A DNA stretch of 64,000 nucleotides from Promethearchaeota archaeon (GTDB lineage Archaea; Asgardarchaeota; Lokiarchaeia; Sigyniarchaeales; SOKP01), in assembly GCA_048940445.1 (NCBI GenBank), contig JBHLON010000002.1:64001-128000 (forward strand). Direction: 5' to 3'. Shown piece by piece: positions 8,517 to 9,853 of the stretch (position 1 is the stretch's first letter; the number at the start of each line of letters is the position of its first letter). A model generated the notes under the pieces. That model did no database searches, was not told the DNA's origin, and saw only the letters and a program-made list of their open reading frames with translations. The position numbers and the translations under genes are program-made.

Positions 8517-9853
8517 AATACTTCCGAATCTAAAACAATGGTATCTTTTCTTTCAGGACCAATTGAAATCATTGAAATGTTCGTTTGTAATTCTTCTTTA
8601 ATCGATTGAAGATATGCTTTCATAGTAGCTGGTAATGAATTGTATCCTTTCCTTGCGATTTCTGACCATTCCTCTCTCGATCTTTTATCCCAACCCTCAA
8701 ATTCTTTATATATGGGGGCAGATTTTTCAATTATTTCATGATGAATTGGCCAACTTTCTAAAATCTTTTCATTCAACTTATATCCAGTACACATCTTAAT
8801 TGGATTAATTCCTTCAAGAACATCAAGAAGAGTAATTATTACTTTATCTATCCCATTGAGCATTATTCCATATTTAATATTAAAAAGATCAATCCAGCCT
8901 ACTCTTCTAGGGCGTCCAGTAACAGTTCCATATTCATGCCCTTGTTTTCGAATAATTTCCGCAATATCACCAAAAAGTTCTGTTGGAATTATTCCTTCCC
9001 CCACTCTTGAAGTATATGCTTTAATAATTCCATAGATTTTACCCAATTTCTTTGGTGGAATCCCAGAGCCTGCACTAATTCCGAGAGCATTAGCATTCGA
9101 TGATGTCCCATATGGATACATCCCATGATCTAACCCTAATAAATTTCCCTGAGCTCCTTCAAAAAGAACTTTCTTTCCTGCATTAATTTCCTTATTAAGA
9201 TAGTAAGCTGTATCAATTACATAAGGTTTTAGTCGTTCACCGTAATCCTTGTATTCTTTATAGATTATTCCTATGTCCATGTCCCAGTTTGGGTCGTAAA
9301 CGTTAATCAAGGCTTTTTTTATTTTGAAAAGTTTTTCTAATTTAGATTTTAATATATCGGGATTGATTAAATCAAATATTCTTATACCCCATCTAGCAGC
9401 TTTATCGGCGTAAGCGGGACCAATTCCTCTTTTGGTAGTACCAGCGCTATATTCTCCTTTACTTTCTTCCTCTAAACCATCTAGGATACGATGAAAAGGA
9501 AAGATTACATGTGCAGTTGAACTTAACTTTAAATTTATTTTTTTATTTAAATTTTTTAAGTTATCAATTTCCTCCAAAAGAACCTTTGGGTCAACAACAA
9601 CTCCATTTGCAATTACATTCTCTTTTTCTAATGGAGCACCAGAGGGCATCAATTTGAATTTATATTTAATTCCATCAGCAACAATTGTATGTCCTGCATT
9701 GTTACCACCATTGTATCTTACGACTATATCTGATCTTTGAGCTAAGAAGTCAACAAACTTACCTTTTCCTTCATATAGGGTTAAGAGCATCCTGCATCAT
9801 TAATCTCCCCAACTTAGCCCAATAACAGCAATTGTGTTTACTTTATTGTCCAT
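8513..9853 (-). CDS. purA: Adenylosuccinate synthetase; two exons (9853-9805 and 9774-8513), 436 aa after splicing
   Basis: Exon 1 [16 protein letters not shown] joined to exon 2 gives WGDEGKGK; [33 protein letters not shown]. Confidence 0.95.
9775..9804 (-). other. 30-nt BHB/BHL-type mRNA intron in purA
   Basis: ATTAATGATGCAGGATGCTCTTAACCCTAT; helix GGGG/CCCU, bulges AG|A and AU|A, UUAA/UUAA stem; two in-frame stops; removal restores GDEGKGK. Confidence 0.85.

Follow-up and report, generated by a model that had tools for sequence, protein, structure and literature searches.

A 30-nucleotide insert in the Asp13 codon of purA from a Promethearchaeota archaeon is probably an intron removed by the tRNA-splicing enzymes

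The purA gene of a Promethearchaeota archaeon (GenBank assembly GCA_048940445.1) lies on the minus strand of a 64,000-nt stretch of contig JBHLON010000002.1 (positions 64,001 to 128,000, forward strand), which is called the window here and whose first base is position 1. The gene is split at 9804-9775 by an insert of 30 nucleotides that falls within the codon of a catalytic Asp residue. With a probability of roughly 0.87, the comparative sequence evidence identifies this insert as an archaeal intron of the bulge-helix-bulge (BHB) type in the purA pre-mRNA, which would be cut by EndA and rejoined by RtcB. In other words, the purA mRNA very probably needs cutting and rejoining by the enzymes of tRNA splicing.

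The reading frame is opened by the ATG at 9853-9851, which leads a 17-residue peptide, and TAA and TGA follow in frame. The open reading frame (ORF) lister gives only 8513-9790 for purA, an ORF of 425 amino acids whose start ATG is inside the insert. This frame encodes adenylosuccinate synthetase (Pfam Adenylsucc_synt, E = 2.1e-150), with the match covering profile positions 10-416 only. Deletion of the 30 nucleotides gives TGG GGA G↓AT GAA GGA AAA (the arrow marks the junction, and predicted cuts below), that is, WGDEGKGK, the universal P-loop. The insert therefore interrupts the GDEGKGK Asp codon in phase 1. In an alignment with the E. coli PurA chain 1ade_A, the opening Glu of exon 2 falls on residue 14, which makes D13 the Asp that is split. 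Asp13 is the catalytic base of the E. coli enzyme, in which His41 acts as the catalytic acid. The initial annotation of this DNA, made from the letters alone, had placed the split in the catalytic Asp codon with this very junction, and the alignment bears it out. It had also counted three registers of removal that restore the protein; this holds in the window, where AT is repeated at both ends of the insert. The host genome (3.64 Mb, 139 contigs, 30% G+C) is 93% complete and contains one copy of purA, the one interrupted by TAA and TGA; a check for a second copy in this 93%-complete assembly found none.

In the predicted fold, GGGG at the end of exon 1 pairs with CCCU at the 3' end of the intron to form the central helix H. 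The remainder of the intron forms a hairpin, h', in which UUAA (9803-9800) pairs with UUAA (9784-9781), followed by the pairs GA/UC and GCA/UGC; this hairpin is flush with the 5' bulge on one side and with helix H on the other. The helix, bulge and stem coordinates of the initial annotation were all found at their places (Table 1), and the minimum-energy structure calculated for the window sequence with ViennaRNA is the same fold. The 7-pair core, consisting of the four base pairs of helix H and three flush hairpin pairs, occurs by chance at a rate of 1.6e-3 per position at the fixed length of 30 in this genome. For a random 30-nt insert, the core would be found in one of the two to three product-restoring registers about 0.3-0.5% of the time. 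This means that the window alone makes a weak though suggestive case; for the right register, p is roughly 0.003-0.005. The evidence that goes beyond chance is comparative.

Related genes were searched with the pattern TGGGG, gap, GARGGNAARGG..., in which the intron and its ends were left unconstrained. An insert at the identical site was found in 30 of the 154 genomes of the order, all of them from one family, f1. The first sign of recurrence came from the Pfam search, where the same 30-nt excess and in-frame stops were seen in congeneric species. Four of the 13 genera of the family are positive (9/42, 2/6, 1/10 and 18/54 genomes); the first of these is the genus of the present archaeon, where 9 of the 42 species have the insert and 33 are without it. 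The three other families of the order, represented by 19 genomes, gave no insert. When the search was extended to 400 Asgard genomes, the same 30 carriers and no further ones were obtained, and the two extra matches were uninterrupted genes. Matches of a loose pattern on contigs of Methanobacteriota and Woesearchaeota were rejected, since they are start regions and not introns. Seven metagenome contigs also carry the insert, in further versions. In total, 32 distinct introns are at hand, with lengths of 30, 31 or 32 nt.

A maximum-likelihood tree was built from 64 PurA sequences; in it, the intron-bearing purA genes are paraphyletic at the base of the clade of the family, which is well supported. 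At least three changes are needed on this tree, which could be one gain plus two exact losses. The tree pattern fits a single gain followed by exact losses. It should be added that the genomes of L060, L094, L104 and L106 belong to one family, and partly to one genus, in the genome database, while their NCBI titles name four different candidate phyla (Promethearchaeota, Hodarchaeota, Hermodarchaeota and Thorarchaeota). The names in public records are no guide to relatedness in this group.

The register of removal is shared by all versions. In BHB motifs the cut separates the second bulge base from the third (PMC2738675). When the cut was placed after the second bulge base, TGG GGA GAY GAR GGN (WGDEG) was obtained for 32 of 32 variants at any length, and the restored junction was identical to that of the uninterrupted orthologues. 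Introns starting with AA, C, T or G leave only one or two restoring registers, and the register of the BHB rule was always included. The 5' bulge is AG↓N, where N can be any of the four bases (A, C, U or G), and it is closed by helix H and the flush hairpin h' in nearly all variants. The 3' bulge is A, then U, A or G, then ↓A in every one of the 32. The intronic A of this bulge (window 9776, minus strand; column 38 of A3, the 32-variant alignment) is invariant (32/32) despite having no coding role; it could be a recognition base or could form an extra pair.

Helix H has four of four pairs in 30 of the 32 variants and three of four in the other two, whose intronic strand is ACCU; 98.4% of its cells are paired. 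Elsewhere the intronic strand is CCCU, CCCC, CUCU or CUUU against GGGG of the exon, and the intron-side changes are all compatible with pairing. A hairpin is present in all versions, starting directly after the 5' bulge and ending directly before helix H. Its sequence is wholly different between lineages (UUAAUGAUGC...GCUCUUAA here; UAAGUUAA...UUAACUUA, UAAUGGUUG...CAACCAGUA and UUAGCA...UGCUAA elsewhere), and the loops vary freely. In A3, standard pairs fill 93.1% of the pair cells, compared with 81.1% for shuffled partners and 22-54% for slid partners. Changes on both sides of a pair were found in 6 of the 10 pairs (30 cells). The covariation score is 0.318, against 0.140 for shuffles, none of which reached it in 500 trials, and 0.02-0.12 for slid partners. 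Each of the four outer hairpin pairs has changed on both sides (UA/AU, GC/AU and others), and 92.8% of their cells are paired. A compensatory change from G-C to A-U in the hairpin was seen even between L086 and L179, which are close relatives. The isolated hairpins are more stable than shuffles in most of the independent lineages, and smaller alignments gave concordant results for covariation. Aligning purA from related genomes, which the initial annotation had named as a check, has thus yielded both the recurrence of the insert in 30 genomes and covariation in its stems.

Several points weigh against this assignment. The fold energy of the window sequence is at the level of shuffled sequences (z = -0.36 and 0.00, ViennaRNA), and single-sequence folding was dropped as support for that reason. 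The 3' bulge has no proximal exon-exon helix to close it, so the motif is not the canonical hBHBh'. It appears to be of the relaxed HBh' kind, which most cbf5 introns share. This agrees with the initial annotation, which had called the adjacent exon stem relaxed. Covariation is seen in helix H, the 5' bulge and the hairpin, all of them well formed, and the proximal helix is missing. RNAalifold, applied alone to the MAFFT alignment of the 32 sequences, recovers only helix H and one U-A pair; the latter joins the first base of the 3' bulge to the U of the Trp codon and would make a 5-bp helix. The hairpin is missed because its columns are not homologous between lineages, and explicit pair counting was used in place of RNAalifold. 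Helix H itself has no room for double changes, since the Trp-Gly codons hold its exon strand fixed. Furthermore, many of the sequences are related, so that the cell counts give too high a tally of independent events.

The 3' stretch AN↓A has only a distal helix of 10 bp, 27 nt away, which joins the two exons. This pairing had been proposed in the initial annotation. In A2, a smaller alignment of 17 distinct sequences, it is kept in 16, with 95.9% of the cells paired. However, its changes are one-sided and wobble-compatible only (G-C/G-U or U-A/U-G), and the L106/L204 lineage is without it. The distal helix is consistent with selection at the RNA level, which is not proof of it.

The codons of the gene were also compared. 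The ratio of nonsynonymous to synonymous substitution rates (dN/dS) among the intron-bearing purA genes is 0.05-0.10, at dS of 0.8-3.7, which is at or past saturation. The intron-bearing genes are under strong purifying selection, as expected from the earlier claim that the rest of the gene is intact. The peptide of exon 1 is conserved in intron-less orthologues too, and synonymous changes are seen at Ala-8 and Val-7 among the intron-bearing genes. Exon 1 is under coding constraint, because its peptide is kept while synonymous sites change. The Gly codon at the bulge is GGA in 18 of 18 intron-bearing sequences, compared with 11 of 26 intron-less ones. The codons GGG-CTA-AGT of the distal helix are nearly fixed in the intron-bearing genes, whereas they are free to vary in the intron-less ones; on the 3' strand of this helix, TTA is found in 18/18 and GCY in 17/18 intron-bearing sequences. 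The codons neighbouring those of the motif vary freely in both intron-bearing and intron-less congeners. Such frozen synonymous sites are the pattern expected of selection on the RNA, short of proof.

The host genome encodes two EndA paralogues, in the regions C3:34241-34465 and C62:31241-31489. One of them has the Tyr, His and Lys motifs and was aligned end to end with its best solved relative, the catalytic subunit of the Aeropyrum pernix heterotetramer (3p1z_B, E = 3e-38), including the KPR loop region. The other is without the His and gave weak matches to beta-subunit models. RtcB is also encoded (C94:60701-62002; E = 2.7e-168). From these sequences, the host appears to have RtcB and an EndA of the broad-specificity (alpha-beta)2 type, of which the subunit assembly is predicted. 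Asgard EndA has been described as (alpha-beta)2 with the L1 loop, which permits relaxed motifs (PMC5829648). ARAGORN recognised 14 tRNA genes in the genome, six of them with introns; five of these introns are 18-21 nt long and located at or near the canonical position, and one is 63 nt long. Most of the tRNA genes are probably too interrupted for recognition. The low count fits a 2026 preprint in which Asgard tRNA genes are described as heavily interrupted.

On this basis, the following course of splicing is proposed. The transcript would begin a few bases upstream of the ATG at 9853 and span both exons. Pairing of the exon-1 end with the 3' end of the intron would produce the 4-bp central helix, on which the rest of the intron would be stacked as a hairpin. 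On the 5' strand this fold would present the 3-nt bulge AG↓A, and on the 3' strand the stretch AU↓A; the heterotetrameric (alpha-beta)2 EndA would cut after the second base of each. RtcB would then join the 2',3'-cyclic phosphate of exon 1 to the 5'-OH of exon 2. The ligation would recreate Asp13 from G and AU and, with it, the P-loop GDEGKGK; the 30-nt intron would be released, probably as a small circle. The distal helix might hold the exons together and so replace the missing proximal helix. Unspliced mRNA would give only an 18-residue peptide, because the frame meets UAA directly after GAU. If active PurA needs splicing, then the synthesis of AMP from IMP would need it as well.

Table 1. 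Coordinates of the purA intron, its predicted structural elements and associated features (window positions unless another sequence is named; the arrow marks a predicted cut or junction)
Feature	Position	Strand	Remarks
TATA-box-like element GATATTAAAT	9882-9891	-	29-38 nt upstream of the exon-1 ATG; putative promoter element
purA exon 1	9805-9853	-	ATG, 16 codons and G of the Asp13 codon
Distal exon-exon helix, 5' strand UUGGGCUAAG	9813-9822	-	partner 9746-9737
Central helix H, 5' strand GGGG	9807-9810	-	codons TGG GGA; partner 9780-9777
5' bulge A9806 G9805 ↓ A9804	9804-9806	-	predicted 5' cut 9805/9804
30-nt intron (predicted) AUUAAUGAUGCAGGAUGCUCUUAACCCUAU	9775-9804	-	removal gives the exact WGDEGKGK junction of intron-less relatives
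Intron hairpin h', UUAA-U-GA-U-GCA / loop GGA / UGC-UC-UUAA	9781-9803	-	flush with 5' bulge and helix H
Central helix H, 3' strand CCCU (intronic)	9777-9780	-	partner GGGG 9810-9807
3' bulge A9776 U9775 ↓ A9774	9774-9776	-	predicted 3' cut 9775/9774
Predicted spliced junction	9805/9774	-	...GGGCTAAGTTGGGGAG↓ATGAAGGAAAAGG...
purA exon 2	8513-9774	-	AT of the Asp13 codon, EGKGKFVD... on to the stop 8515-8513
Distal exon-exon helix, 3' strand CUUAGCUCAA	9737-9746	-	partner 9822-9813
Second purA insert, L086	1580-1610	+	identical in L195
Second purA insert, L179	1530-1560	-	after the His41 codon

The stops of the unspliced frame show a regularity of their own. In most variants a stop stands one codon past the cut (GAU UAA, GCU UAG, GUU UAG), and the remaining ones have it within the intron or where the 3' border lies. 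Hairpin positions 2-4 (U-A-R; window 9801-9803) supply this early stop. It may have been selected to halt translation of unspliced mRNA, or it may be a by-product of the stem.

Among other explanations, the one that survives best accepts a real intron at the RNA level and assigns its removal to enzymes other than EndA and RtcB, such as another hairpin-recognising endonuclease or an unknown ligase. The relaxed motif with its 3' bulge lacking a proximal closing helix would suit such an enzyme, and the invariant intronic A of that bulge could be a sequence-specific recognition element. Against this, the spacing is exactly that of a BHB, with the 4-bp helix and second-base cuts in 32 of 32 variants at any intron length, and the host has both the broad-specificity type of EndA and RtcB. 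Moreover, the same relaxed motif of cbf5 is cut in vitro by a heterotetrameric EndA (PMC2738675). We consider removal by other enzymes improbable, and splicing by EndA and RtcB is preferred.

Translational recoding would leave the insert in the mRNA: the ribosome would either read through the stops or hop over the hairpin, as in T4 gene 60. The stop directly after the Asp codon, at the foot of the hairpin, does resemble a take-off site, and the insert in this genome is a multiple of three. The inserts of 31 and 32 nt in the relatives, however, put exon 2 out of frame, so that readthrough of stops cannot repair purA there; here, readthrough would place 10 extra residues within the invariant P-loop. 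For hopping, the take-off and landing codons do not match: most variants have UAU or UAC at the downstream landing position as the counterpart of GAU. Asp-Glu would be lost in a hop from GGA to GGA, and in 7 of 18 sequences the downstream Gly codon reads GGC or GGG. In addition, the covariation lies in the exon-intron helix, which hopping does not need. Recoding of either kind is thus very improbable.

Very small odds are likewise given to the idea that the insert is the footprint of a small mobile DNA element, similar to a miniature inverted-repeat transposable element, which spread horizontally and was tolerated for its BHB-like fold. Its stem is palindromic, and terminal repeats of 1-2 nt (A...A or AT...AT) are present. 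The insert is patchy within the family, being found in 4 of 13 genera, and its site is the gene's most conserved motif, a kind of site that homing elements occupy too. Yet this is no true alternative to splicing, since removal from the RNA would still be required. The intron sequences follow the purA tree, with related variants grading into each other, and one gain with two losses suffices to explain the distribution. The sequence was met nowhere else, and the neighbours of purA, a GNAT acetyltransferase and a GIFT/DUF4350-like protein, include no nuclease gene.

The least probable of these explanations is that the gene is a pseudogene or an assembly or sequencing artefact, or that it makes a protein without the P-loop from the internal ATG. 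Gene callers do report exactly this last product, of 424-425 amino acids, and, among the 120 closest clusters of public proteins, 36 begin within the insert or shortly after it, many of them named adenylosuccinate synthase. An artefact is contradicted by recurrence in 30 independently assembled genomes and seven metagenome contigs. The low dN/dS over saturated synonymous divergence, the conserved exon 1 in register and the failure to find a second purA copy speak against a pseudogene. As for the shortened protein, the internal ATG, whose product the initial annotation had expected to be inactive, is missing in most variants, and the lost Gly-Asp is part of the invariant GDEGKGK, which is uninterrupted in all insert-free orthologues. 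Finally, a self-splicing group I or II intron was rejected because a ribozyme core takes hundreds of nucleotides and the insert only 30-32 (no Rfam intron family was found in the window), an intein because the insert has in-frame stops and shifts the frame in relatives, and a split protein was considered and rejected too.

A TATA-box-like GATATTAAAT is found at equal distance upstream of the ATG in congeneric intron-bearing purA genes. The divergent neighbour of purA, at 10001-10879 (+), encodes 292 amino acids with weak matches to IFT52-GIFT, ABC_transp_aux and DUF4350 and a coiled-coil tail. An archaeal RNase P RNA is located at window 34109-34433 (-), with 122 bits against Rfam RF00373, and marks the host as an archaeon.

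Further short inserts were seen at other sites. A second insert in purA, of 31 nt, stands directly after the His41 codon (NAGH↓T) in one metagenome contig and in G089 (Promethearchaeota AMARA_1S), a genome from a different genus of the family. Here GGUC or GGCC of the exon pairs with GGCU of the intron, the bulges are AU↓U and AA↓A, and removal restores AGHTVV. Both of the putative purA mini-introns appear to lie at codons of catalytic residues. Outside the window, metG (C10, about 14361-14392, plus strand) carries a 32-nt hairpin insert between ...WPYVN and VIPHLGN, the region of the HIGH motif. Its removal joins the frames as WPYVN↓VIPHLGN, and the Pfam match of metG starts at position 10.

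A census of BHB-like motifs in the whole genome was also attempted, by scanning for motifs whose removal fuses open frames, with parallel-pairing decoys as the control. The purA intron was recovered. However, 541 real loci stood against 486 decoy loci at >=100 open codons on each side, and the scan was discarded as a census; it is uninformative because any hairpin between neighbouring genes on the same strand fuses them. Its two matches inside the dnaK gene of the window are false, dnaK being one intact ORF of 665 amino acids.

Taken together, the inserts at Asp13, at His41 and in the HIGH region of metG allow a wider, tentative idea, to which we give clearly less than even odds. The purA intron might be one of a set of old, lineage-wide mRNA mini-introns that depend on EndA and prefer codons of catalytic residues, so that the production of core enzymes would be gated by tRNA splicing. 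Their persistence or spread might be caused by the lethality of imprecise loss, or by a process resembling homing. If true, this would mean obligate and possibly regulated splicing of mRNAs for protein enzymes in the closest prokaryotic relatives of eukaryotes.

The intron also leaves its mark on public records. The 36 clusters among the 120 closest PurA clusters are gene calls beginning in or just after the intron (for example MLTPNEGKGK...), without the Gly-Asp of the P-loop. Among public protein clusters, none holds the spliced full-length protein of this species: the only one above 87% identity is the truncated 425-residue call of this genome itself, and the cluster at 87% is truncated too. 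Truncated adenylosuccinate synthase records, amounting to about 30% of the closest relatives, thus represent a systematic annotation error in metagenome-assembled genomes. Since these gene calls lack the P-loop, metabolic reconstructions and family alignments that use such genomes carry a systematic error as well. Gene calling that takes introns into account would likely expose more genes of this kind.

Among known systems, the architecture of the purA intron matches that of archaeal tRNA introns with relaxed HBh' or bulge-helix-loop (BHL) motifs, whose cutting enzyme is an EndA of the (alpha-beta)2 or epsilon2 type (Marck and Grosjean 2003; PMC5829648). Both have a 4-bp helix made by bases of the 5' exon and the 3' end of the intron, 3-nt bulges and a hairpin. 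The tRNA introns of the host itself, such as that of tRNA-Thr (cuug/CAAG), are in a similar size range and have the same layout, and the same enzymes would be expected to act on them. Unlike a tRNA precursor, the purA mRNA has no tRNA body to aid recognition, and codons dictate the exon strand of helix H. Because what results is a reading frame, the cuts have to be accurate to a single nucleotide.

BHB processing sites are known in archaeal rRNA precursors and in the 5' region of a Haloferax mRNA (PMC7714728; Schwarz 2020). There EndA acts on substrates other than tRNA, as is proposed for purA. These sites lie outside coding sequence and restore no codon, whereas removal of the purA intron does. 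A more distant parallel is the splicing of HAC1/XBP1 mRNA in eukaryotes, where Ire1 cuts two stem-loops in the mRNA and tRNA ligase or RtcB rejoins the ends, with a change of reading frame. The nuclease and the motif are different from those proposed here, the process is regulated by stress, and there is no homology at the RNA level.

Of the known cases, the cbf5 intron, which occurs in Desulfurococcales and Sulfolobales (Watanabe 2002; Yoshinari 2006; Yokobori 2009, PMC2738675), comes closest. In the literature searched, splicing of archaeal coding sequence by tRNA endonuclease is documented for cbf5 only, in Crenarchaeota; papers of 2018 and 2025 cite only the three cbf5 studies for BHB introns in pre-mRNA, and no report of such introns in Asgard archaea or in purA was found in the same literature. 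Like the purA intron, the cbf5 intron is short, has an unconventional BHB and occurs in hosts with a hetero-oligomeric EndA, and it has been gained and lost within its clade in a similar manner. The two introns have no sequence similarity. The cbf5 gene encodes an RNA pseudouridine synthase of Thermoproteota, whereas purA serves purine synthesis in a family-level clade of Asgard archaea (Promethearchaeota). Splicing of cbf5 has been shown by cDNA and by cleavage in vitro, while that of purA is predicted from comparative sequence evidence. To the documented case, the purA intron would add a gene of central metabolism, the Asgard phylum with the closest known relatives of eukaryotes, and retention across dS up to 3.7 in at least four genera. 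The cbf5 intron also splits the codon of a catalytic Asp after its first letter, exactly as the purA intron does. This common position, together with the intron at His41, raises the question of why active-site codons should be the ones that are interrupted.

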